DNA of 13,815 nucleotides from a virus. The notes under the pieces were generated by a model. The model ran no database searches and had not been told where the DNA came from. It was given only the letters and a program-made list of their open reading frames with translations. The position numbers and the translations under genes were made by a program. The DNA is taken from the UHGV virus genome UHGV-1810643; one strand, 5' to 3'. This document shows, piece by piece, positions 896 through 13,687 of this stretch (positions within the stretch are counted from its first letter, which is position 1; each line of letters opens with the position of its first letter).

Positions 896-2776
896 TTAAT
901 ACTCCGTCACGTTTTCCTGTCGCCACGCCTCGTCATATTCCGATTTCGGCATATTGGCGATGTAGCTATATGGCGATCCTGATTCAAGTTGCAGGAACTG
1001 GTGCGATTGCTCGTCAAGGAACAACGGGACACCACCTTCCCAACCTTCGCCGTTTCGTTGTTTTTCAAGCATCAAAACAGATGCCGGAGACGCCAGTACC
1101 TGTTCGTCCTTCTCTGACATCTTTTCACCACTCTGAACTCTCTGTAACGCTCTCTCGCGAGCCTTGTTACGCCAGATGATGAAAAGGTTGTCTGTCAGGT
1201 CTGTTATCGCTCCAGAGCCTTTTACGTCCATTTTCCCGGTTGGTTTTTCTTCGCTGTCTCCTTTTCGCGAGTGAGTAACGAGAATGACGTGGGAGTTTGT
1301 TTTGTTTTTGAAGTCGCAAATCGAGTCAACAAACGCCTTCTGCCCGTTATAGTCATCGTCGCCTATGCCACATTTCATCAGGCTGTCGATGATGAATAAC
1401 TGGATCCCGTATCGGCGGCGAGCGTAGTCGAATATTTCGATCAGCCTGTCGGCTTTCGCCGTTCCGGTCAGGCCAAACACCCAAAGTCTTTCGTCATAAA
1501 ATTTAAATGCAGAGTCAATTTCCAGCACTGGCGGCATCTTGCAGCACGTTGCCTGACGGGTAAGGCGCTTAAGGAGAATACCAGGCTTCAGCTCAAGTGA
1601 CGCGATGCACGTCTTCACACCCTGACGCATTGCCTCAAGTGCCATATGCCCGACAACCTCCGTTTTTCCGTGACCGTTCACACCATTGACCAGCGTCAAC
1701 TCGGCCTCACGGAACTGGAATTTATCTGCCAGAGATTCCCACGGTGGATTAAACAGATACTGCTGCTTGCCGTAGAAAGCGTTGATAGTGTCCTGGTAAA
1801 ACTCTCGCGCGCTGTAGAGTTCTTCAGGATCAAAGTAGGATGCCGTGCCGATGTACTGCCAGATTGCATCCTCGGTAACACCGTTCATCAGGCATTCGTT
1901 GATGTCTTTGTACGGCAGAGTAACAAGACGGCAACGATGTTCACCGAGTCGGCTTGCGATTTCCCTTGCGGCTTCACGACCAACATCATCAACGTCCATC
2001 GAGATGAATATTTCCTCAAACCTGTCGAGGTTGTGATACTCAAACTCAATCCACTGTTGCTTAGCGCCTTTCCCTCCACCAAACGGTACGGATAACGCCG
2101 AGATGCCGTATTGCGCATAGCTCATACAATCAATTTCGCCTTCGCAAAGTACAACCGCCCTCACGCCAGCGTCCAGAGCCTGCCATCCGAACAGACAAGG
2201 TTCGCAATCACCTTCTGCCATAATGACTTTCTTCCCGTCCGGGCGCTCAGTGCTGATTCGCTTGACCTGCAACAACTCACCATCGCGTTTGTACGGAATC
2301 ACCAGAGCATCCAGTTCCCGCTCTCCATTCCACACCTTGCCGCTGACAACCTCGTAGCGCTTTACGATTTCTGGCGATATGCCACGCGATTGCAGGTACT
2401 CAAGATGGGATTCTGTTCTGGTAACGTAGCGGGCGATTTTCTTGCGATCAGGTCTGGAGAATTTTTTCTCACGTCTGGCATCGAAATGGTGATCGTCATC
2501 CTTGATACCGAGAAATGCTTTCGCTTCCTGCATAGCCTGATGCAGGTTAATTCCACGACATGCCATCCACAAATCAAGCATGTCACCGCCGTCTCCCTCA
2601 GCGAAATCAGCCCATTTTTTCTTGCCGCTAAGGTTGACCTTAAGGCTGTTTCCCTTGTCACCGTTGATGTTACCGGCAACCCACTCATGCCCCTCTTTCT
2701 TGCCGTTTGGCAACAGGTGCGGAGCCACCCTGTCAACCTGCGCCCAAAGCAGGTCGCTAAGTTCACTTGGCGTCAT
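896..2776 (-). CDS. Bifunctional primase-helicase (626 aa): TOPRIM primase domain plus C-terminal Walker A (DnaB/T7 gp4-like) helicase
   Basis: ORF track; TOPRIM-like motif CEGEIDCMS; Walker A GVNGHGKTE; occupies the position of lambda P. Confidence 0.88.
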   Translation of the reverse strand: MTPSELSDLLWAQVDRVAPHLLPNGKKEGHEWVAGNINGDKGNSLKVNLSGKKKWADFAEGDGGDMLDLWMACRGINLHQAMQEAKAFLGIKDDDHHFDARREKKFSRPDRKKIARYVTRTESHLEYLQSRGISPEIVKRYEVVSGKVWNGERELDALVIPYKRDGELLQVKRISTERPDGKKVIMAEGDCEPCLFGWQALDAGVRAVVLCEGEIDCMSYAQYGISALSVPFGGGKGAKQQWIEFEYHNLDRFEEIFISMDVDDVGREAAREIASRLGEHRCRLVTLPYKDINECLMNGVTEDAIWQYIGTASYFDPEELYSAREFYQDTINAFYGKQQYLFNPPWESLADKFQFREAELTLVNGVNGHGKTEVVGHMALEAMRQGVKTCIASLELKPGILLKRLTRQATCCKMPPVLEIDSAFKFYDERLWVFGLTGTAKADRLIEIFDYARRRYGIQLFIIDSLMKCGIGDDDYNGQKAFVDSICDFKNKTNSHVILVTHSRKGDSEEKPTGKMDVKGSGAITDLTDNLFIIWRNKARERALQRVQSGEKMSEKDEQVLASPASVLMLEKQRNGEGWEGGVPLFLDEQSHQFLQLESGSPYSYIANMPKSEYDEAWRQENVTEY

Positions 2777-2880
2777 GATTCCCTCAGATTGAGATTTTTA
2801 AACCAGAAATCGACAAACGAAATACTTAACCAGCCGTGGTTATAACCAGCGACCAGTAGCGATTTGATTTTTGATTTCAT
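2773..2880 (-). CDS. Possible 35-aa coupled mini-ORF between O-like gene and primase-helicase
   Basis: ATG at 2880..2878; stop overlaps primase-helicase start in an ATGA arrangement; weak SD; below ORF-track cutoff. Confidence 0.25.
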   Translation of the reverse strand: MKSKIKSLLVAGYNHGWLSISFVDFWFKNLNLRES

Positions 2881-2883
2881 GGT

Positions 2884-3744
2884 TCACCTGTCGAAAAACA
2901 CGTAGCCAGTTTTCGATACGGTGATTGCGGATGATGGTTTGGATTGTGGTTGAATGGTTTCTGGCTTTTCGTCGTTCCAGCGTTGACCGTTCAGGTAGCT
3001 CGATGGTAACAACCTGTCGAATCCGAACTGCTTACCATTCCTGCATGCGATGTCTTCTGCCAGCATCGTGGCAAACTCGCTTGCCGTCCCCCTGGTAGTT
3101 TTACGCCATTCCCTGAACTGTGTTCTGAATGCCGAAGCTGCGTTTTTCTTCCCGGCTTTCCGCATGCCTGCACACCAGAATATTTCCTCGAATGCCTTGT
3201 CGGTTTCTTCGTGACGGTCATGTGATTTTTCACACTCCGTCCGAACACTTTCGGACATAGTGTTTTTATTATTTCTTTTTTCTTTTGTAATAGTTTCTTT
3301 TGTGTGTCCCTGTTTTGGTGACAGCGCTGTCACCGTTTTGGTGACACTTTTTGTCACCAATGCAGTGACATTATCACCAGAGTAGTGACACCCTTCGATT
3401 TGCCATTCCTCGATGTTCTTGTTAGGCCCGATTTGCTGGCCTTCGCGAAGGATAACCTTCATCGCGATAAGCTCATTCTTGGCCTTGTTTACCTTCTGTC
3501 TTGGCAGCCTGGTAATTTGAGCTAACTGACTATCAGAGATGCGATCCATCTTTTTACCGTAGCCGTATGTTTTACGGCATATGGCGTGGGCAACCTTGCT
3601 CTGATTTTTCGTTAAATCTGCGCCGATAAGCTCTTCATACAGGGCATTTGCAAGACGGGTATAACCATCTTCAACTTCTGCCACACGACGCTCCACAGGC
3701 CGTTGTGAAGGCCTTAAATGTGTTACGGTTGCAAGATTACTCAT
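2884..3744 (-). CDS. Replication initiator, lambda O-like N-terminal DNA-binding domain with divergent C-terminal domain (286 aa)
   Basis: ORF track; N-terminal region [26 protein letters not shown]...[16 protein letters not shown] resembles lambda O as recalled; AAGGAG SD; iteron origin inside the gene. Confidence 0.85.
3263..3393. repeat. Replication origin: four GTGACA-containing iterons (3317..3393) next to an A/T-rich tract (3263..3300)
   Basis: GTGACA at 3318, 3341, 3365, 3385 with 20-24 bp spacing; perfect palindrome GGTGACAGCGCTGTCACC at 3317..3334; A/T-rich run on the side expected for an ori-lambda-type layout. Confidence 0.7.
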
Positions 3745-3883
3745 GACCTTTCTCCTTCTGCATCAGCTTCACTTTTTCCAACTCAGCCCGGAATCGACCA
3801 GGCTGCTTGAAGCTGGACAGGAAGCGATCACGTAGTATGTGTTTGTGAATTTTGTCCTGGTAAGGACTGAGTTGTTTTGTCAT
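3737..3883 (-). CDS. Possible 48-aa basic protein in the cII-O intergenic region
   Basis: ATG at 3883..3881 with AGGAG 5 nt upstream; stop overlaps the O-like start; below ORF-track cutoff. Confidence 0.3.
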
Positions 3884-3917: not shown

Positions 3918-4196
3918 TCAGGCCTCGAAGAATTCGCCGTTCTTCGGGGCTTTTTCTTTTGTCAGCATTCTGGCTACTTGCTTAGCCAGTTCCGCCAACT
4001 CCTCGTCTTCAACACCCCATTCCAGCACAGCCAGAAGCATGGCCATCTTTGGGATAAAGCTGTCTTTCCATCGCGAAATTTGCGATTCATTAATCCCTAA
4101 CGCGTCGGCAACCTTTCGCTGACCACGTACAGCAATTCGATTCAGGATGTTGCTTGTAATTGCATTCGCTTTCTTGCGAGTACTTGTAAGTTGCAT
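3918..4196 (-). CDS. cII: CII-like transcriptional activator (92 aa), divergent from lambda CII
   Basis: Start set at ATG 4196..4194 because the upstream leader matches the lambda cII leader as recalled; conserved SQISRWK helix; ORF-track upstream extension rejected. Confidence 0.85.
3923..3960 (+). terminator. oop-like antisense terminator overlapping the 3' end of cII
   Basis: Plus-strand hairpin cctcgaagaa / ttcttcgggg (one mismatch), 7-nt loop, followed by ctttttctttt; antisense to cII C-terminal codons, as for lambda oop. Confidence 0.55.
4174..4187 (+). promoter_or_regulatory. pRE-like CII binding site (TTGC-N6-TTGT) inside the cII 5' coding region
   Basis: TTGC at 4174..4177 and TTGT at 4184..4187, same distance from the cII ATG as the lambda pRE TTGC repeats (recalled); oriented toward cro antisense / cI. 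Confidence 0.5.
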
Positions 4197-4612: not shown

Positions 4613-5329
<717 letters not shown>

Positions 5330-5441
5330 TCGGCAAGGTGTTCTGGTCGGCGCATAGCTGATAACAATTGAGCAAGAATCTTCATCGAATTAGGGGAATT
5401 TTCACTCCCCTCAGAACATAACATAGTAAATGGATTGAATT

Positions 5442-6281
5442 ATGAAGAATGGTTTTTATGCGACTTACCGCAGCAAAAATAAAGGGAAAGATAAGCGCTC
5501 AATAAACCTGTCTGTTTTCCTTAATTCTCTGCTGGCTGATAATCATCACCTGCAGGTTGGCTCCAATTATTTGTATATTCATAAAATCGATGGAAAAACT
5601 TTTCTCTTTACCAAAACAAATGACAAGAGTCTGGTTCAGAAGATAAATCGCTCTAAAGCTTCAGTTGAAGATATTAAGAACAGCCTCGCAGATGACGAAT
5701 CATTGGGATTCCCATCTTTTTTGTTTGTTGAAGGCGACACCATTGGTTTTGCCAGAACTGTTTTCGGGCCGACCACATCCGATCTGACAGATTTTTTAAT
5801 CGGGAAAGGAATGTCATTAAGCAGTGGAGAGCGCGTTCAGATAGAGCCACTGATGAGGGGAACCACCAAAGACGATGTTATGCATATGCATTTCATCGGC
5901 CGAACAACGGTGAAGGTAGAAGCCAAGCTACCTGTATTTGGCGATATATTAAAGGTCTTAGGGGCAACAGATATTGAAGGGGAGCTTTTTGACTCATTGG
6001 ATATAGTCATTAAGCCAAAATTTAAAAGGGATATAAAAAAGGTTGCCAAGGATATTATTTTTAACCCGTCACCTCAATTTTCAGACATTAGCCTGCGGGC
6101 AAAAGATGAGGCCGGAGATATTTTAACAGAACATTATCTATCAGAAAAAGGCCATCTCTCAGCGCCTCTGAACAAGGTCACCAATGCTGAGATAGCTGAA
6201 GAGATGGCATATTGCTACGCAAGAATGAAAAGTGATATACTGGAATGTTTTAAAAGGCAGGTGGGCAAAGTTAAGGATTAA
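5442..6281 (+). CDS. rexA: RexA (279 aa)
   Basis: ORF-track protein beginning MKNGFYATYRSKNKGKDKRSINLSVF matches lambda RexA as recalled. Confidence 0.95.
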   Translation: MKNGFYATYRSKNKGKDKRSINLSVFLNSLLADNHHLQVGSNYLYIHKIDGKTFLFTKTNDKSLVQKINRSKASVEDIKNSLADDESLGFPSFLFVEGDTIGFARTVFGPTTSDLTDFLIGKGMSLSSGERVQIEPLMRGTTKDDVMHMHFIGRTTVKVEAKLPVFGDILKVLGATDIEGELFDSLDIVIKPKFKRDIKKVAKDIIFNPSPQFSDISLRAKDEAGDILTEHYLSEKGHLSAPLNKVTNAEIAEEMAYCYARMKSDILECFKRQVGKVKD

Positions 6282-6296
6282 TTATCAGGAGTAATT

Positions 6297-6731
6297 ATGC
6301 GGAACAGAATCATGCCTGGTGTTTACATAGTAATAATTCCTTACGTTATCGTAAGCATTTGCTATCTCCTTTTCCGCCACTACATTCCTGGTGTTTCTTT
6401 TTCAGCTCATAGAGATGGTCTTGGGGCGACATTGTCATCATATGCAGGAACCATGATTGCAATCCTGATTGCTGCCTTGACGTTTCTAATCGGAAGCAGA
6501 ACGCGCCGACTGGCCAAGATTAGAGAGTATGGGTATATGACATCGGTAGTTATTGTCTATGCCCTTAGTTTTGTTGAGCTTGGAGCTTTGTTTTTCTGCG
6601 GGTTATTGCTTCTTTCCAGCATAAGCGGCTACATGATACCCACTATCGCCATCGGCATTGCCTCTGCATCGTTCATTCATATATGCATCCTTGTTTTCCA
6701 ACTATATAATTTGACCAGAGAACAAGAATAA
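6297..6731 (+). CDS. rexB: RexB (144 aa), polytopic membrane protein
   Basis: ORF-track protein matches lambda RexB as recalled; several hydrophobic segments. Confidence 0.95.
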   Translation: MRNRIMPGVYIVIIPYVIVSICYLLFRHYIPGVSFSAHRDGLGATLSSYAGTMIAILIAALTFLIGSRTRRLAKIREYGYMTSVVIVYALSFVELGALFFCGLLLLSSISGYMIPTIAIGIASASFIHICILVFQLYNLTREQE

Positions 6732-7235: not shown

Positions 7236-7562
7236 ATGGATGCACAAACACGCCGCCGCGAACGTCGCGCAGAGAAACAGGCTCAATGGAAAGCAGCAAA
7301 TCCCCTGTTGGTTGGGGTAAGCGCAAAACCAGTTAACCGCCCTATTCTCTCGCTGAATCGCAAACCGAAATCACGAGTAGAAAGCGCACTGAATCCAATA
7401 GACCTTACAGTGCTGGCTGAATACCACGAACAGATTGAAAGCAACCTGCAACGTATTGAGCGCAAGAATCAGCGCACATGGTACAGCAAGCCACGCAGTG
7501 AAATGGGGGTGACTTGTGTTGGTCGCCAGAAAATGAAATTAGGCAGCAAACCACTTATTTGA
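7236..7562 (+). CDS. N: Antiterminator N (107 aa) with variant C-terminus
   Basis: ORF-track protein MDAQTRRRERRAEKQAQWKAANPLL matches lambda N at the arginine-rich N-terminus; last ~25 residues differ from lambda N as recalled. Confidence 0.9.
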   Translation: MDAQTRRRERRAEKQAQWKAANPLLVGVSAKPVNRPILSLNRKPKSRVESALNPIDLTVLAEYHEQIESNLQRIERKNQRTWYSKPRSEMGVTCVGRQKMKLGSKPLI

Positions 7563-7570
7563 GGTGATAT

Positions 7571-7657
7571 ATGGAAGAAGAATTTGAAGAGTTCGAAGAG
7601 CATCCGCAGGATGTGATGGAACAATACCAGGACTATCCGTATGACTACGACTATTGA
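7571..7657 (+). CDS. 28-aa acidic peptide (lambda orf28-like)
   Basis: ATG at 7571 with GAGGTGA SD overlapping the N stop; translation MEEEFEEFEEHPQDVMEQYQDYPYDYDY; 17-nt overlap with ral start. Confidence 0.4.
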   Translation: MEEEFEEFEEHPQDVMEQYQDYPYDYDY

Positions 7658-7841
7658 TAAGAATCAATGGTGTGGACAATTCAAGCGATGCAATGGATGC
7701 AAGCTGCAATCGGAATGCATGGTTAAGCCTGAAGAAATGTTTCCTGTAATGGAAGATGGGAAATATGTCGATAAATGGGCAATACGAACGACGGCAATGA
7801 TTGCCAGAGAACTTGGTAAACAGAATAACAAGGCTGCCTGA
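7641..7841 (+). CDS. ral: Ral restriction-alleviation protein (66 aa)
   Basis: ORF-track protein MTTTIDKNQWCGQFKRCNGCKLQSEC matches lambda Ral as recalled. Confidence 0.85.
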   Translation: MTTTIDKNQWCGQFKRCNGCKLQSECMVKPEEMFPVMEDGKYVDKWAIRTTAMIARELGKQNNKAA

Positions 7842-7858
7842 TGGTGGCCTTTATTTTT
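7830..7858 (+). terminator. Weak hairpin plus T-run after ral (possible terminator)
   Basis: 5-bp stem aaggc / gcctt with 12-nt loop followed by tattttt; weak. Confidence 0.3.
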
Positions 7859-7977
7859 GGCATAAACAACAGAATAAACACAGCACTGTGTATTCATTCC
7901 AACGAGTGAATACACGGAGCAATGTCGCTCGTAACTAAACAGGAGCCGACTTGTTCTGATTATTGGAAATCTTCTTT

Positions 7978-8003
7978 GCCCTCCAATGTGAGGGCGATTT
8001 TTT
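7978..8003 (+). terminator. Rho-independent terminator upstream of ea10
   Basis: Perfect 6-bp stem gccctc (7978..7983) / gagggc (7990..7995), 6-nt loop, then gatttttt. Confidence 0.6.
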
Positions 8004-8023
8004 ATCTGTGAGGATATGAATAG

Positions 8024-8392
8024 ATGTCAAACATCAAAAAATACATCATTGATTACGACTGGAAAGCATCAATAGAAATTGAAATCGACCATGACGTAAT
8101 GACAGAGGAAAAACTTCACCAGATTAATAATTTCTGGTCAGACTCTGAATACCGACTCAATAAACACGGCTCTGTATTAAATGCTGTATTAATCATGCTG
8201 GCGCAACATGCTCTGCTTATAGCAATTTCAAGCGACTTAAATGCATATGGTGTTGTGTGTGAGTTCGACTGGAATGATGGAAATGGTCAGGAAGGATGGC
8301 CTCCAATGGATGGTAGCGAAGGAATAAGAATTACCGATATCGATACATCAGGAATATTTGATTCAGATGATATGACTATCAAAGCCGCCTGA
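8024..8392 (+). CDS. ea10: Ea10-like protein (122 aa)
   Basis: ORF track; size and position after ral match lambda ea10; GAGGA SD upstream. Confidence 0.75.
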   Translation: MSNIKKYIIDYDWKASIEIEIDHDVMTEEKLHQINNFWSDSEYRLNKHGSVLNAVLIMLAQHALLIAISSDLNAYGVVCEFDWNDGNGQEGWPPMDGSEGIRITDIDTSGIFDSDDMTIKAA

Positions 8393-8467
8393 GCGCGGCT
8401 TTACCGCATACCAATAATGCTTCACGAGAGGCATTTTCGTTATGCAATCAAATATAAGGAGTTACCC

Positions 8468-8602
8468 ATGATGCACTTTCAGCTCGCGGGTAGCGGCGTC
8501 ATGTCCGCTTTCTACCCGCACGAATCTGAATTATCACGCCGAATTAAACAATTAATCAGAGCAGCAAAGAAACAACTGGAGGCGTTATGCGCAATGAAAT
8601 AG
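8468..8602 (+). CDS. cIII: CIII-like protease inhibitor (44 aa), divergent from lambda CIII
   Basis: Start at ATG 8468 with AGGAG 6 nt upstream (ORF-track extension to 8417 lacks an SD); ESELSRRIKQLIRAAKKQL resembles the conserved CIII helix. Confidence 0.7.
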   Translation: MMHFQLAGSGVMSAFYPHESELSRRIKQLIRAAKKQLEALCAMK

Positions 8603-8739
8603 CCATTAATCACCAGATGCTTCGTGCTGCACAGAACAAAGCAGTAATAGCCAGATTTATTGGTGATTCCAAAATGTGGCTTGAAGCAAATAAAGCGATG
8701 AAATCAGCGATCAACATTCCGTGGTATCGCAGGAAATGA
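8587..8739 (+). CDS. Kil-like small protein (50 aa)
   Basis: ATG at 8587 with GGAGG SD; overlaps cIII end as kil does in lambda/P22; below ORF-track cutoff; assigned by position only. Confidence 0.5.
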   Translation: MRNEIAINHQMLRAAQNKAVIARFIGDSKMWLEANKAMKSAINIPWYRRK

Positions 8740-8814
8740 GTTTTACAGATAACTGGTCAGACGAAGAATTCATTCGTCAGATGAAAGATTTAATCGGTAA
8801 CGAAGGAGATATGC

Positions 8815-8985
8815 ATGTCACTTGCAACCACAGTGAAGGAGAGCAAGTTACAGAGACGCATGTACACTCAGCAGGCGTTAATGTATCGCCAGAAGGGAGA
8901 TCGTGAAGGTGTTCGCGTATTTTTAAATGCGGCAAAGACTGAAGTATTAAATCAGCGTTATTTCCTTGTGCCATGTCCATTCTGA
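8815..8985 (+). CDS. Arf-like small basic protein (56 aa) immediately upstream of erf
   Basis: ATG at 8815 with AGGAG 6 nt upstream; ends 10 nt before erf; assigned by position; alternative ORF 8736..8906 overlaps in another frame. Confidence 0.4.
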   Translation: MSLATTVKESKLQRRMYTQQALMYRQKGDREGVRVFLNAAKTEVLNQRYFLVPCPF

Positions 8986-8995
8986 GAACAAACAT

Positions 8996-9601
8996 ATGAG
9001 CAAAGAATTTTACGCAAGACTGGCAGCCATTCAGGAGAATCTGAACGCGCCAAAGAATCAGTACAACTCATTCGGTAAATATAAATACAGAAGCTGCGAA
9101 GACATTCTTGAAGGCGTTAAGCCGTTACTGAATGGCCTGTTTTTATCAATCAGCGATGAAGTTGTGTTGATTGGTGATCGGTATTACGTGAAAGCCACGG
9201 CAACTATTACCGATGGCGAAAACAGTCATACGGCAACCGCACTAGCACGAGAGGAAGAAAGCAAGAAAGGAATGGATTCTGCACAAGTTACGGGCGCTAC
9301 AAGCTCTTATGCACGCAAGTATTGCCTCAATGGTTTGTTCGGCATTGATGATGCGAAAGATGCAGATACAGACGAGCATAAACATCAGCAGAGCGCAGCA
9401 GCAAAGCAATCAAAACCATCACCTACACCTGAACAGGTTCTAAAAGCATTCACTGACGCAGCATTGCAGAAAAACACCGTGGAAGAGCTTAAACAGGCGT
9501 TCGCCAAAGCGTGGAAGATGCTCGAAGGCACACCGGAGCAGCAAAAAGCGCAGGACGTTTACAACATCAGACGAGACGAATTAGAAGGAGCGGCTGCTTA
9601 A
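8996..9601 (+). CDS. erf: Erf single-strand annealing recombinase (201 aa)
   Basis: Protein from MSKEFYARLAAIQENLNAPKNQYNSFGKYKYRSCEDILEGVKPLL matches P22 Erf as recalled; start at internal ATG 8996 rather than ORF-track 8966. Confidence 0.9.
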   Translation: MSKEFYARLAAIQENLNAPKNQYNSFGKYKYRSCEDILEGVKPLLNGLFLSISDEVVLIGDRYYVKATATITDGENSHTATALAREEESKKGMDSAQVTGATSSYARKYCLNGLFGIDDAKDADTDEHKHQQSAAAKQSKPSPTPEQVLKAFTDAALQKNTVEELKQAFAKAWKMLEGTPEQQKAQDVYNIRRDELEGAAA

Positions 9602-9984
9602 TGGCACATTCGATTACTGTAAGACTAAACAAGCCCGTAAGAGAGTTTCAGGCCGGGGAAAATATCGGATTCAACATCCGTGCTGGCGTTCAGTATTACG
9701 ATCGCCAGACAAAAAAGAAAGAATGGACAAACTACAGCGCCGTTGTATTTGCCAAGCCGGGAGCGCAAGCGGATTACTACCGTAGTGTTCTTGTTGAAGG
9801 TGGCATTGTAGAAATTACCGGAGAAAACATCAGGGTTGATGTTTATCAGGGGCAAAATGGTCAATCAATCACTCTTGAATTACTGAATGCAAAGATTGGA
9901 TTTGCAGCTTCAGGAAATGGCCCGCAGCAGCAAAGTAGTAATCATCAAAATCATCCTGAATACGACGATTCAATTCCCTTCTAA
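9601..9984 (+). CDS. Short SSB-like protein (127 aa) with C-terminal acidic DDSIPF tail
   Basis: ATG at 9601 overlapping the erf stop; OB-fold-like core; C-terminus PEYDDSIPF resembles the E. coli SSB tail DDDIPF. Confidence 0.7.
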   Translation: MAHSITVRLNKPVREFQAGENIGFNIRAGVQYYDRQTKKKEWTNYSAVVFAKPGAQADYYRSVLVEGGIVEITGENIRVDVYQGQNGQSITLELLNAKIGFAASGNGPQQQSSNHQNHPEYDDSIPF

Positions 9985-10007
9985 ATTAGCAAAATAAGGA
10001 TTCCATT

Positions 10008-10304
10008 ATGCCAGCGCCTCTGTATGGTGCGGACGACGCGCGCCGCTGTTCCGGCAATTCCGTATCGGAGGTGCTGGATAAATTCAGAAAAAACTACGAT
10101 CGGATAATGTCGCTACCGCAGGAAACGAAAGAGGAAAAGGAATTTCGCCACTGTATATGGCTTGCAGAGAAAGAAGAACGCGAGCGAATTTACCAGACAT
10201 CAATCCGACCATTCCGCAAAGCCACATATACCAACTTCCCTGAATATATCGAACCGCGCCTGCGTAATTACCGCTCACGCTATGGCGCTATCAGTAATGA
10301 CTGA
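10008..10304 (+). CDS. Abc2-like anti-RecBCD protein (98 aa), tentative
   Basis: ORF track; AAGGA SD; size and position after erf consistent with P22 abc2; identity from memory only. Confidence 0.5.
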
Positions 10305-10314
10305 GGAATTTACC

Positions 10315-10482
10315 ATGAGAGGACTTGCATACAATCCCGGCATTCTTCCGGCAGAAATGATTATTCGCCAACGCGTAAAGCCAATGCCATCGAGAGAGGA
10401 ATTGCTTAAGAGAAATTCTTTTCCATCAGTGAATCAAAACAAATATCTGAATGCGATGTGGCGCAAAGGAGGCAACCAGTGA
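10315..10482 (+). CDS. Hypothetical 55-aa protein
   Basis: ATG at 10315 with GAGGAA SD 7 nt upstream; stop overlaps the next gene's GTG start (GTGA). Confidence 0.35.
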
Positions 10483-11204
10483 GCAAGATTGATTATCAAA
10501 AGCTTCGTGAAATCGCTGAAAAAACAAAAATTGCTGGTGAAGCACCTGTAATGCCTTTCGATCAGCGAATTAATGCGCTTAACGATTTTATGAAGCACTT
10601 TTCGCCAGATATCGCGCTGGCATTGTTGGATGAACGGGAAAGAAACCAGCAATACATCAAACGCCGCGACCAGGAGAACGAGGATATTGCGCTTACGGTT
10701 GGGAGGCTGCGCGTTGAGCTGGAAGGCAAAGACAGCAAAATAGCCAATCTTACCGCCGAACGCGATGCTCTTCGTGAAGGTGAGATGGGCGACGCTAGGC
10801 ATAGCAACACACGGGCCGCAGCTGATATCTACTTCCAACTGGTCGAGGAATGCGAAATTCCTGCTGGCGGATCTCTGGTCGAGTACGTTGACGATATGCG
10901 CGAGAAGCTGGAAGCCGCAGAGAAGCGCATTGCAGAACTGGAAGCACGGGAAATAAAACCAGCCAAAGGCGAAGTTCTTGTCGTTGTTTCTGGTTTTACT
11001 GGTTGCGGAAAAAGCGCCATCGCCGGGGAAATAGAAATCGCGATGAAGGCTATTGGTGTACCGGTTCAGTGGACTAATGGCGATGTGGAAAAGCGCATGA
11101 CAGGAGCTGACTGGCTGACAGCGATTGAGATGTACAAACCAACAGTGCGCATCGTGGAAGTTAATGTGCCACGCGCCGCAGGCATTCGCATCAAAGGAGA
11201 GTGA
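10479..11204 (+). CDS. Ea22-like coiled-coil protein (241 aa) with divergent C-terminal region containing a Walker A-like motif
   Basis: GTG at 10479 with AGGAGG 6 nt upstream; [27 protein letters not shown] and terminal GIRIKGE match lambda Ea22 as recalled; body differs. Confidence 0.65.
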
Positions 11205-11406
11205 GATGAGCAGGAATACGGGTTTGTAAAAGATAACGCTTGTGAAAATGCTGAATTTCGCGTCGTCTTCACAGCGATGCCAGAGTCTGTAGTGTCAGAT
11301 GATGACCTTACTCAAACATCGGGTTGAGTATTATCTTACTGTTTCTTTACATAAACATTGCTGATACCGTTTAGCTGAAACGACATACATTGCAAGGAGT
11401 TTATAA

Positions 11407-11688
11407 ATGAGTATCAATGAGTTAGAGTCTGAGCAAAAAGATTGGGCGTTATCAATGTTGTGCAGATCCGGTGTCTTGTTTCCATGCAGACATCACGAAG
11501 GTGTTTATGTAGATGAAGGTATAGATATAGAGTCGGCATACAAATATTCCATGAAGGTTTATAAGTCTAATGAAGACAAATCCCCATTCTGCAATGTGCG
11601 AGAAATGACTGATACCGTGCAAAATTATTATCACGAGTACGGTGGAAACGATACTTGCCCTCTCTGTACAAAACATATAGATGATTAA
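11407..11688 (+). CDS. ea8.5: Ea8.5-like protein (93 aa), Cys/His-rich
   Basis: ORF track; AAGGAG 7 nt upstream; size and position match lambda ea8.5; C..C / C..C / HH pattern. Confidence 0.75.
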   Translation: MSINELESEQKDWALSMLCRSGVLFPCRHHEGVYVDEGIDIESAYKYSMKVYKSNEDKSPFCNVREMTDTVQNYYHEYGGNDTCPLCTKHIDD

Positions 11689-11705
11689 ACCAAATATTAC
11701 ATAAC

Positions 11706-11763
11706 AATCCTCGCACTCGCGGGGATTTCTTTTATCTGAACTCGCTACGGCGAGTTTTGTTTT
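11706..11763 (+). terminator. Tandem rho-independent terminators after ea8.5
   Basis: Hairpin aatcctcgc..gcggggatt then tctttt (11706..11734); perfect 7-bp stem aactcgc/gcgagtt, loop tacg, then ttgtttt (11739..11763). Confidence 0.6.
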
Positions 11764-11776
11764 ATGGAGATGATAA

Positions 11777-11944
11777 ATGCACTTCCGAGTCACAGGTGAA
11801 TGGAATGGAGAGTCATTCGACAGGGTTATCGAAGCAGAGGACATCAACGACTGCTATAACCACTGGATGATATGGGCGCAGATAGCGCATGCAGACGTAA
11901 CCAATATTCGAATTGAAGAACTGAAAGAACACCAAACCGCCTGA
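11777..11944 (+). CDS. Hypothetical 55-aa protein (matches the unnamed lambda ORF between ea8.5 and xis as recalled)
   Basis: ATG at 11777 with GGAG 7 nt upstream; below ORF-track cutoff. Confidence 0.5.
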   Translation: MHFRVTGEWNGESFDRVIEAEDINDCYNHWMIWAQIAHADVTNIRIEELKEHQTA

Positions 11945-11957
11945 TGGCGGTTTTTTA
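11937..11957 (+). terminator. Terminator hairpin overlapping the stop of the 55-aa ORF
   Basis: Stem ccgcc (11937..11941) / ggcgg (11946..11950), loop tgat, then tttttt. Confidence 0.55.
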
Positions 11958-11970
11958 TTGGAGACAAGAA

Positions 11971-12315
11971 ATGTCAGATTTGGCTATGAAGGTTTTGAAA
12001 TGGCAATCGACTGGCGATGTCGGCATCAGTAGCGCAACTCTTGCCTCAATCGCATGTGGACTGAAAAAGAATATCTATGGTCATCACTTCGGCGCTCCAC
12101 ATGACGCAGCCGATTTCCGACGATGCGTTGCACTGGTTGAGCAGATCCCAGAAATCAGAGATTCATTCGACAAGGTTGCAAAGCGCGTTCCGGCATTCAA
12201 AGGCATCCTCACCGAATGGGATTCCCTCGTTGCTCTGTTGAAGTCTGAAATGAAGATACACGGAAACAAAGCACCAGAGACTTACAGAAGAATTAGCGAG
12301 TTACGCAAGGACTAA
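11971..12315 (+). CDS. Hypothetical protein (114 aa) inserted between the 55-aa ORF and xis
   Basis: ATG at 11971 with GGAGA SD (ORF-track start 11944 lacks an SD); no similarity recognised; no counterpart in lambda as recalled. Confidence 0.6.
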   Translation: MSDLAMKVLKWQSTGDVGISSATLASIACGLKKNIYGHHFGAPHDAADFRRCVALVEQIPEIRDSFDKVAKRVPAFKGILTEWDSLVALLKSEMKIHGNKAPETYRRISELRKD

Positions 12316-12373
12316 CCACAGCCTCACACTCGATGAGGCCCGTTCATTTCTCAAGATATCCAGACCTACCATT

Positions 12374-12396
12374 GCCGCATCAATGCGGCTTTTCTT
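12374..12396 (+). terminator. Terminator-like hairpin upstream of xis
   Basis: Stem gccgca (12374..12379) / tgcggc (12384..12389), loop tcaa, then ttttctt. Confidence 0.5.
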
Positions 12397-12408
12397 GCGT
12401 GTAATTGC
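12395..12408 (+). promoter_or_regulatory. pI-type CII binding site (TTGC-N6-TTGC) upstream of / overlapping xis start
   Basis: ttgc 12395..12398, six nt, ttgc 12405..12408, as in lambda pI. Confidence 0.5.
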
Positions 12409-12420
12409 GGAGACTTTGCG

Positions 12421-12639
12421 ATGTACTTGACACTTCAGGAGTGGAACGCACGCCAGCGACGCCCAAGAAGCCTTGAAACAGTTCGTCGATGGGTGCGCGA
12501 ATGCAGGATATTCCCTCCTCCGGTTAAGGATGGAAGAGAGTATCTGTTCCACGAATCAGCGGTAAAGGTTGACTTAAATCGACCAGTAACAGGTAGCCTT
12601 TTGAAGAGGATCAGAAATGGGAAGAAGGCGAAGTCATGA
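12421..12639 (+). CDS. xis: Excisionase Xis (72 aa)
   Basis: ORF-track protein MYLTLQEWNARQRRPRSLETVRRWVRECRIFPPPVKDGREYLFHESAVKVDLNRPVTGSLLKRIRNGKKAKS matches lambda Xis as recalled. Confidence 0.95.
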   Translation: MYLTLQEWNARQRRPRSLETVRRWVRECRIFPPPVKDGREYLFHESAVKVDLNRPVTGSLLKRIRNGKKAKS

Positions 12640-13687
12640 GCGCCGGGATTTACCCCCTAACCTTTATATAAGAAACAATGGATATTACTGCTACAGGGAC
12701 CCAAGGACGGGTAAAGAGTTTGGATTAGGCCGAGACAGGAGGATAGCAATCACTGAAGCTATACAGGCCAACATTGAGTTATTTTCAGGACACAAACACA
12801 AGCCTCTGACAGCGAGAATCAACAGTGATAATTCTGTTACGTTACATTCATGGCTTGATCGCTACGAAAAAATCCTCGCCAGCAGAGGAATCAAGCAGAA
12901 GACACTCATAAATTACATGAGCAAAATTAAAGCAATAAGGAGGGGCCTGCCTGATGCTCCACTTGAAGACATCACCACAAAAGAAATTGCAGCAATGCTC
13001 AATGGATACATAGACGAGGGCAAGGCGGCGTCAGCCAAGTTAATCAGATCAACACTGAGCGATGCATTCCGAGAGGCAATAGCTGAAGGCCATATAACAA
13101 CAAACCCGGTCGCTGCCACTCGCGCAGCAAAATCAGAGGTAAGGAGATCAAGACTTACGGCTGACGAATACCTGAAAATTTATCAAGCAGCAGAATCATC
13201 ACCATGTTGGCTCAGACTTGCAATGGAACTGGCTGTTGTTACCGGGCAGCGAGTTGGGGATTTATGCGAAATGAAGTGGTCTGATATCGTAGATGGATAT
13301 CTTTATGTCGAGCAAAGCAAAACAGGCGTAAAAATTGCCATCCCTACAACATTGCATGTTGATGCTCTCGGGATATCAATGAAGGAAACACTTGATAAAT
13401 GCAAAGAGATTCTTGGCGGAGAAACCATAATTGCATCTACTCGTCGTGAACCGCTTTCATCCGGCACAGTATCAAGGTATTTTATGCGCGCACGAAAAGC
13501 ATCAGGTCTTTCCTTCGAAGGGGATCCGCCTACCTTTCACGAGTTGCGCAGTTTGTCTGCAAGACTCTATGAGAAGCAGATAAGCGATAAGTTTGCTCAA
13601 CATCTTCTCGGGCATAAGTCGGACACCATGGCATCACAGTATCGTGATGACAGAGGCAGGGAGTGGGACAAAATTGAAATCAAATAA
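12617..13687 (+). CDS. int: Tyrosine integrase Int (356 aa)
   Basis: ORF-track protein matches lambda Int as recalled; 23-nt overlap with xis as in lambda. Confidence 0.97.
   Translation: MGRRRSHERRDLPPNLYIRNNGYYCYRDPRTGKEFGLGRDRRIAITEAIQANIELFSGHKHKPLTARINSDNSVTLHSWLDRYEKILASRGIKQKTLINYMSKIKAIRRGLPDAPLEDITTKEIAAMLNGYIDEGKAASAKLIRSTLSDAFREAIAEGHITTNPVAATRAAKSEVRRSRLTADEYLKIYQAAESSPCWLRLAMELAVVTGQRVGDLCEMKWSDIVDGYLYVEQSKTGVKIAIPTTLHVDALGISMKETLDKCKEILGGETIIASTRREPLSSGTVSRYFMRARKASGLSFEGDPPTFHELRSLSARLYEKQISDKFAQHLLGHKSDTMASQYRDDRGREWDKIEIK

Follow-up and report, generated by a model that had tools for sequence, protein, structure and literature searches.

It has been textbook knowledge since about 1979 that the replication origin of lambdoid phages is located inside gene O, that the N-terminal domain of the O protein reads the iterons and that its C-terminal domain picks the helicase partner. 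In ori-lambda, whose iterons are also found in phages 434 and 21, the sites are placed within the initiator gene right past the part coding for the N-domain, and the annotated iterons start at positions 39034, 39054, 39078 and 39101, with a spacing of 20/24/23. Dimers of lambda O bend the DNA on binding to four 19-bp inverted repeats and, if the template is supercoiled, open the 40-bp A+T tract next to them (PMC5043065, PMC7466680). The origins of phi80 (initiator gp15) and P22 (initiator gp18) follow the same plan of dyads, spacing and A/T tract, each with its own iterons inside an O-family gene, and the Stx phages 933W and P27 have origins with six iterons (PMC7466680) that keep lambda-type half-sites. 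Site arrays beside an A/T-rich unwinding element, served by a winged-helix initiator, are likewise known from the iteron origins of plasmids (RK2 TrfA, pPS10 RepA, F RepE; PMC5043065), where the repeats are direct and are bound by monomers.

The stretch analyzed in our study is the 13,815-nt virus genome UHGV-1810643 (the window), in which an initial annotation had placed origin iterons with GTGACA dyads, adjoining an A/T-rich tract, inside an O-like gene at 3263-3393. This interval is within a 286-aa ORF (2884-3744), which does hold the repeats, while its strand needed correcting, as the gene is encoded on the minus strand. The encoded protein matches PF04492 (Phage_rep_O) with residues 20-114 (E = 1.1e-37; 128.8 bits, above the Pfam gathering score of 28.7), the full 95-position profile being covered, and in its first ~155 residues it shares 49% identity with lambda O. 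The region is very probably the O-type replication origin of a lambdoid prophage with its cognate iterons, a reading based on the sequence and on analogy with lambda. In construction it follows ori-lambda, while its specificity class is another one.

The neighboring genes give the picture of a mosaic lambdoid prophage. In the reading direction of the O-like gene, a pR-like promoter (4568-4540, minus strand; TTGACT-17-GATAAT, identified by consensus match only) is followed by cro and cII, which have the same orientation as the O-like gene, by an oop-like terminator antisense to the end of cII, and by a DUF2740 ORF that overlaps the start of the O-like gene. Downstream of the O-like gene there is a 35-aa ORF and then the partner gene, a 626-aa Toprim and DnaB-like primase-helicase (896-2776, minus strand; Pfam Toprim_2 with E = 3e-12, AAA_25 and DnaB_C), presumed to be the protein recruited by the O C-terminal domain. 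The other arm holds cI, rexA, rexB, N, Erf, Abc2, Ea22, ea8.5 and a lambda-type integrase. By analogy with lambda (PMC5043065), the pR-like promoter would transcribe cro, cII and O through the origin, and the origin would thereby be subject to transcriptional activation.

In regard to the repeats themselves, the unit is a 19-bp dyad, TGTCACC-N5-GGTGACA (7-N5-7), and four such dyads are present in 3305-3390, all on the minus strand when read in the order of the gene. Iteron 1 (TGTCACTACTCTGGTGATA, 3372-3390; TATCACCAGAGTAGTGACA on the plus strand) has two mismatches to the dyad consensus and iteron 2 (TGTCACTGCATTGGTGACA, 3352-3370; plus strand TGTCACCAATGCAGTGACA) has one, iteron 3 (TGTCACCAAAACGGTGACA, 3328-3346; plus strand TGTCACCGTTTTGGTGACA) is a perfect consensus dyad, and iteron 4 (TGTCACCAAAACAGGGACA, 3305-3323; plus strand TGTCCCTGTTTTGGTGACA) has a degenerate right arm. 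This arm, which reads AGGGACA or AGAGTCA throughout the GTGACA class of origins, continues into sequence common to lambda iteron 4 (lambda reads ...AAAACAGGGGGACACAAAAGA). Distances between iteron starts are 23, 24 and 20 on the plus strand, that is, 20, 24 and 23 in gene orientation. When TGTCACCNNNNNGGTGACA was searched for with up to three mismatches, five matches were found in the window, four of them within the 86-bp stretch; shuffled sequences gave a mean of 0.53 matches, and none of 200 shuffles reached five.

The register of the dyad was verified without presupposing the repeat unit. Among 76 distinct GTGACA-class origins, the distance from TGTCAC to GTGACA was 13 in 307 of 325 cases, while the distance in the reverse register varied (5, 7, 10, 11 or 16); this makes the 19-bp dyad (7-N5-7) the repeat unit here, as it is in lambda. 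The perfect 18-bp palindrome GGTGACAGCGCTGTCACC singled out in the initial annotation does occur exactly, at 3317-3334, formed by arms of two neighboring iterons (3, right arm; 4, left arm), but it is not the repeat unit: its register is variable across origins, as opposed to the constant 7-N5-7, and it was rejected as the binding unit. Similar incidental palindromes are found at the iteron junctions of lambda. CRP and LexA boxes were also considered and rejected, as by eye the arms and spacings do not fit TGTGA-N6-TCACA or CTGT-N8-ACAG. Nor do the repeats correspond to plasmid-type iterons, understood as direct repeats without a dyad and outside the rep coding sequence, because every unit is a dyad inside the initiator ORF; unlike the plasmid repeats, such units would be expected to bind dimers. 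The 20/24/23 spacing is present in 71 of 97 distinct GTGACA-class origins, and 19 of the 97 have 5, 6 or 8 copies. Variation in iteron number, known from the Stx phages, thus occurs in this class too, while the window has the canonical four.

The layout had been proposed to mirror ori-lambda, and the correspondence proved to be close. The dyads begin 6 nt past the N-domain (residue 116) of the PF04492 protein, the order in gene orientation is N-domain, iterons and A/T tract, the 20/24/23 spacing is identical, two of the four window iterons have kept AAAAC as central spacer, and a nearly identical A/T tract of about 40 bp is located promoter-distal of the iterons, with pR, cro, cII and oop upstream. 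The iteron sequence, on the other hand, differs as had been stated: the arms are TGTCACC/GGTGACA in the window and aTCCCTC/GAGGGAa in lambda, a symmetric change on both sides. The N-domain is 53% identical to that of lambda O, with PRQKVNK in place of lambda PVKRCNE on the recognition helix, and the O C-terminal domain is unrelated to that of lambda, the partner being a Toprim/DnaB-like primase-helicase and not lambda P. Comparison with phi80, 82 and 21 had been suggested in the initial annotation. Phage 21 carries lambda-type iterons, and phi80 belongs to a different class (TTCCCG-AAAAC-GGGAA sites, TTCCCG..CGGGAA, annotated as gp15 binding sites), with an N-domain only 27% identical to that of the window; in the compared region phi80 is 99.7% identical to HK225. 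No record of phage 82 was found in searches of the phage collection. P22 has aTTTACC-N5-GGTAAAa dyads and an N-domain 51% identical to that of the window, and HK97, Gifsy-1 and ES18, like P22, have iterons of classes other than GTGACA.

The tract adjoining the repeats (CACAAAAGAAACTATTACAAAAGAAAAAAGAAATAATAAAAACAC, 3260-3304, minus strand) is indeed A/T-rich, as initially noted, and is predicted to be the DNA-unwinding element: the GC content is 17.5% in 3260-3299, compared with about 45-55% around it. It has one mismatch to the lambda tract in 33 positions (32/33 identical), and lambda shares the sequence from the iteron 4 spacer through the A/T tract (AAAACAGGGACACACAAAAGAAACTATTACAAAAGAAAAAAGAAA, corresponding to lambda AAAACAGGGGGACACAAAAGACACTATTACAAAAGAAAAAAGAAA). 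A tract opening with CACAAAAGA is kept in all iteron classes, with a GC content of 0.25-0.32. Just past it, a palindrome search revealed GTCCGAAAGTGTTCGGAC (3239-3256), whose presence follows the C-terminal module and not the iteron class: 24 of 35 C2 (primase-helicase-type) loci have it. Loci with other C-terminal modules have other palindromes at the same place, and lambda too has a different one there.

The A/T tract also coincides with a joint in the mosaic. The match to ES18 stops at window position 3317 and the match to PhiR12 begins at 3272, so that the joint common to the ES18-type, PhiR12 and Proteus V3 examples comprises the iteron 4 right arm and the A/T tract (3272-3317). The possibility that the AGGGACA arm of iteron 4 is a scar of recombination between lambda and non-lambda origins was considered and is only partly supported; since the arm is class-wide and overlaps the conserved joint, it represents a shared feature and not a scar specific to the window.

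As the repeats are located in coding DNA, they could also merely reflect a repetitive peptide within the linker of O, with selection acting on the protein and not on the DNA. The region does translate into a visibly repetitive peptide, and a Proteus homologue has a similar one. However, the four iterons begin in codon phases 1, 3, 3 and 2, and the same DNA motif in three phases therefore encodes different peptides (CH.., VT.., LSP..). In addition, all units have the dyad symmetry that a peptide repeat could do without, the spacers between the arms are free to drift though they are coding too, and the iteron-encoded segment is predicted to be disordered. The synonymous positions were compared in 17 distinct origins whose N-domains are less than 85% identical to that of the window. 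Invariant third-codon positions amounted to 14 of 20 in the arms (mean conservation 0.90) and to 8 of 106 in the N-domain (mean 0.63; Mann-Whitney p = 3.7e-7), which indicates that selection acts on the DNA. The peptide-repeat explanation was rejected on the codon phases and this third-position test, and among the alternatives considered here we regard it as the most improbable. Alignment of 405 iterons gave the logo T-G-T-C-A-C-(C/T) a-n-n-n-(c/t) (G/A)-G-T-G-A-C-A, in which the arms mostly hold 1.5-2.0 bits, with weaker positions 7, 13 and 15 (0.8-1.2 bits), and four of the five spacer positions hold 0.5-0.8 bits, while the first, a conserved A, holds 1.5 bits.

Furthermore, the initial annotation had suggested that the different iterons imply a distinct initiator specificity, seated in the N-domain. 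This was addressed in a survey of 160 additional loci for which the N-domain had been aligned, half of them (80) from IMG/VR and the other 80 from GTDB species representatives, in which the half-site was called, with no motif assumed, as the commonest 6-mer in the 150 nt past the N-domain; loci whose top 6-mer had fewer than four copies were recorded as no call. Among 137 distinct N-domain/origin combinations there was not a single cross-class mismatch between the half-site and residues 81-86 (79-87). PRQKVN at residues 81-86 was accompanied by GTGACA in 82 of 83 cases (one no call), SRQNVN by GAGACA in 12 of 12, SR[SP]KAN by GTAACA in 3 of 3, PVKRCN by the lambda half-site CCCTCA in 13 of 15 (two no call), and HHTHVC by the HK97-type AGCTAA in 12 of 13 (one no call). 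P22, PhiR26_1, phi80/HK225 and others, as single examples, have each their own half-site, bringing the survey to at least eight iteron classes. The apparent exceptions turned out to be decayed genes: in L115 the O gene is split by an insertion of ~1.3 kb and the dyads reappear downstream, L062 has three iterons and a truncated O, and in L128 the origin is deleted; in L091 the sequence ends at the contig end. This comparative evidence upholds the proposed specificity of the N-domain, since the half-site tracks residues 79-87 independently of the C-terminal and partner modules.

The GTGACA class was found in about 100 of the fetched loci, from Escherichia, Shimwellia, Citrobacter, Pantoea, Serratia, Xenorhabdus, Photorhabdus, Providencia, Proteus, Tatumella, Rahnella, Erwinia, Enterobacter, Trabulsiella and Arsenophonus, with N-domain identity inside the class going down to 62%. 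The 1.2-kb O region of the window is present at no less than 80% coverage in 170 of 5426 complete E. coli genomes. Co-variation of N-domain and iterons could partly reflect physical linkage, the two being adjacent. Nevertheless, at the level of sequence comparison, divergence to 62% with the arms kept, together with class switches by symmetric single bases, argues for selection rather than for mere linkage.

The same survey bears on the possibility that the dyads serve another DNA-binding protein as operators, for example a regulator of phage or host, or that they act on antisense transcripts as hairpins or terminators. Dimeric regulators in general have sites with dyad symmetry, and a simple terminator scan flags two dyad junctions on the plus strand, antisense to O, because GTTTT spacers come after the stems. 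An Rfam scan of the window, on the other hand, gave no family matches, which speaks against this possibility. The half-site changes with O residues 79-87 over the 137 combinations and at least eight classes, whatever the immunity region or partner genes, the position and spacing are homologous to the biochemically defined O sites of lambda (PMC5043065), and the equivalent sites of phi80 carry the gp15 binding site annotation. A role as operators or terminators is thus very improbable, hardly more credible than the peptide-repeat explanation, and recognition of the dyads by the O-like protein itself is the preferred explanation.

Within this protein, the origin-binding domain (residues 1-116; 3397-3744, minus strand) is predicted to be a winged helix. 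The AF2 model, which covers residues 1-120, is of moderate confidence (pLDDT 68.7, rising to 84-89 for residues 70-100; pTM 0.59) and has helices at 46-60, 71-78 and 82-94 and a beta hairpin at 98-107. Its best Foldseek matches in the PDB are all winged-helix regulators (MarR, SlyA, CRP), with weak E values (at least 6e-3) that were used to name the fold class only, and a PDB sequence search with the O-like protein found no relative and no solved O-domain structure. Mutual information between N-domain positions and the class defined by the DNA peaks at residues 79-87, which are also highly conserved within classes, P81, R82 and K84 having the top scores. In the predicted winged helix-turn-helix fold, this cluster would occupy the turn and the N-terminal half of the third helix, and the region coding for residues 79-94 (3463-3510, minus strand), comprising the turn and the third helix, is the predicted specificity determinant. 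A second patch of mutual information was observed at residues 39-47. For residues 102-175, the iteron-encoded segment, the full-length model predicts a disordered linker (pLDDT below 50) that joins two folded domains; with a pLDDT of 53, this model was of too low a confidence for any other use.

The two nearest classes each differ from GTGACA by one symmetric base. The GAGACA class correlates with the substitutions P81S and K84N, and the GTAACA class with P81S, Q83S, V85A and K87I; the substituted residues would be expected to contact the changed bases.

The C-terminal half of the protein and the partner gene show a different distribution. The C-terminal cluster of O tracks the cluster of the partner, and the GTGACA class occurs with four such modules: C2/P2, with the Toprim-DnaB primase-helicase, in 28 loci, C1/P1, with a DnaB-type helicase, in 27, C4/P4, with an IstB/DnaC-like ATPase, in 16, and C3/P3, with lambda P, in 11. 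The iterons therefore belong with the N-domain, and from these sequence associations O is of the classical two-module architecture, with the N-domain going with the iterons and the C-domain with the partner. Natural domain swaps present the same division. The match of ES18, g341c and epsilon34 to the window ends at position 3317, with 92-94.5% identity over window positions 2700-3317, and these phages share with the window the O C-terminal half, the small gp60-like ORF, the primase-helicase (module gp59, gp60 and gp61) and the palindrome past the A/T tract, while their N-domain and iterons are lambda-type; the junction of ES18 with the window falls in iteron 4 and the A/T tract. The ES18 origin is annotated as a rep_origin 'similar to lambda ori', and its gp61 as 'putative primase/helicase; similar to phage T7 gene 4'. 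Conversely, PhiR12 phages (PhiR12_1) match from window position 3272 onward only, having the N-domain and the exact iterons of the window with a lambda-type C-terminus and P. In the Proteus phage vB_BPM-V3, an N-domain 67% identical to that of the window is found with four dyads that agree in type and register and with a DnaB-type helicase.

It could also be argued that the origin is lambda-type by descent but unused here, because the prophage is defective or replicates from another site served by the primase-helicase. The survey does include decayed examples (L115, L062 and L128). In the window, however, an intact O gene encodes a protein with 99% identity to the representative of a sequence cluster of 1106 members, the four iterons agree in every base with those of mEp043, an isolated phage, and the arms are under purifying selection across genera. 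DNA identity over the 1.2-kb O region is 99.3-99.5% to mEp043, Sf101 and vB_EcoP-720R6 and 98.4% to SEN22. An unused origin is therefore improbable, if slightly less so than the other two alternatives, and an origin of the O type, with cognate iterons, remains the favored reading.

For such an origin, we infer from the position-for-position homology that the first steps would be those known from lambda. Dimers of the O-like initiator would bind the four 19-bp dyads, placed about two helical turns apart within the coding sequence of the initiator itself, through the N-terminal winged-helix domain, and the resulting nucleoprotein complex would destabilize the adjoining A/T-rich tract of about 45 bp. 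The specificity for GTGACA over lambda GAGGGA would be set mainly by residues 79-87 (RLPRQKVNK), located where the recognition helix begins. The C2-type C-terminal domain of O would then bring in the phage's Toprim/DnaB-like primase-helicase, replacing the P-DnaB route of lambda. Dimer binding, origin opening and partner recruitment are reasoned by analogy with lambda, and cross-reaction with other classes would not be expected.

In regard to previous descriptions, the mEp043 record PV340537 has no annotated origin feature, and the Sf101 paper makes no mention of iterons. Full-text literature searches for the iteron motif or for the origins of mEp043, Sf101 and SEN22, which did not extend to most of the older subscription papers (Grosschedl & Hobom 1979; Moore et al. 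1979), returned nothing relevant. The GTGACA specificity class thus appears to be undescribed so far, an earlier description, for example of phage 82, being possible. What our study adds is a defined iteron consensus and register for a class common in enterobacterial prophages, which would be of practical use in the automatic annotation of origins in prophages of the GTGACA type, and a natural dataset relating nine helix residues to the half-site, including two classes one base apart, suited to specificity-swap experiments and to the design of orthogonal replicons. It also raises the question by what means a self-contained primase-helicase is recruited by an initiator of the O type. Since the principle has long been known, the understanding of lambdoid replication is not changed by it.

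A broader proposal, to which we give about an even chance, is that the GTGACA origin/initiator pair is orthogonal to those of lambda, phi80, P22 and the GAGACA and GTAACA classes, and that the O family uses a short recognition code. If this is true, residues 79-87 would dictate a half-site of 6-7 bp, with switches of single symmetric bases traceable to a few substitutions, and there would be at least eight natural orthogonal origin/initiator pairs, freely combinable with four helicase-recruitment modules, one of which would link O to a primase-helicase like T7 gp4, a coupling not studied so far. Such pairs could decide which co-resident prophages cross-activate one another and which stay independent in their replication.

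Within the GTGACA class, whose origins carry 19-bp dyad iterons (TGTCACC-N5-GGTGACA), the number of iterons is not fixed. Among the 97 distinct origins over which copies were counted, five iterons were found in 11, six in seven and eight in one, the loci noted for this variation being L118 (from an Arsenophonus endosymbiont), L064-L070, L076-L090, L113, L116 and L117. The additional iterons sit on the side of the N-domain, and the final three spacings stay at 20, 24 and 23. Such variation is reminiscent of the origins of Stx phages, which have six iterons (PMC7466680).

In L115 (approximately locus positions 1800-3100), located on the Klebsiella sp. WOUb02 plasmid NZ_CP170105, inserted DNA of about 1.3 kb splits a GTGACA-class O gene precisely between its N-domain and its iterons, and the dyads resume at locus positions 3099 and 3161. 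Loci L138-L151, found in contigs of GTDB genomes, have both an O N-domain of lambda type and lambda iterons in assemblies from unrelated taxa, including Bradyrhizobium, Pseudoxanthomonas, Shewanella, Chromatium, Pseudomonas, Leeuwenhoekiella, Neobacillus, Oceanobacillus, Paenibacillus and Ruminococcus. The length of several contigs, about 48.4-48.5 kb, is that of the lambda genome, and the pattern looks like public assemblies having been contaminated with lambda DNA.

In regard to the surroundings of the origin, the prophage is a mosaic (window 4616-6731 and 7236-13687, + strand), in which lambda-type immunity genes (cI, rexA, rexB, cro, cII and N), a lambda-type integrase and ea8.5 are accompanied by recombination functions of P22 type (Erf, Abc2). 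A strong terminator-like hairpin with a T-run (3920-3952, +) lies on the strand opposite to cII, over the 3′ end of that gene, which is where the terminator of an oop-type antisense RNA is expected; an Rfam scan of the whole window gave no match. On the minus strand, a 48-aa DUF2740 ORF (3737-3883) overlaps the start of the O-like initiator gene by 8 nt, and a 35-aa ORF (2773-2880), the start and stop of which abut or overlap the neighbouring genes, is found between O and the primase-helicase gene. The latter ORF sits where ES18 has gp60, and Pfam gave no match for it.

The partner of the O-type initiator is here a T7 gp4-like Toprim/DnaB primase-helicase (896-2776, -), in place of a helicase loader. 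The C-terminal domain of O (2884-3230, -), which belongs to cluster C2, is specific to this partner. No experimental description of the mechanism coupling an O-type initiator to a T7 gp4-like primase-helicase was found in the literature. Just past the A/T-rich tract lies the palindrome GTCCGAAAGTGTTCGGAC (3239-3256), which was found with the primase-helicase-type C-terminal module in 24 of 35 loci and does not follow the iteron class. The P22/HK97-type C-terminal module, in contrast, carries a different palindrome, CCCCTTACCCCCTAAAGGGGG, in the same position, and other O C-terminal modules likewise have their own, different palindromes at the equivalent place. The palindrome GTCCGAAAGTGTTCGGAC may belong to the side of the origin on which the partner is loaded.
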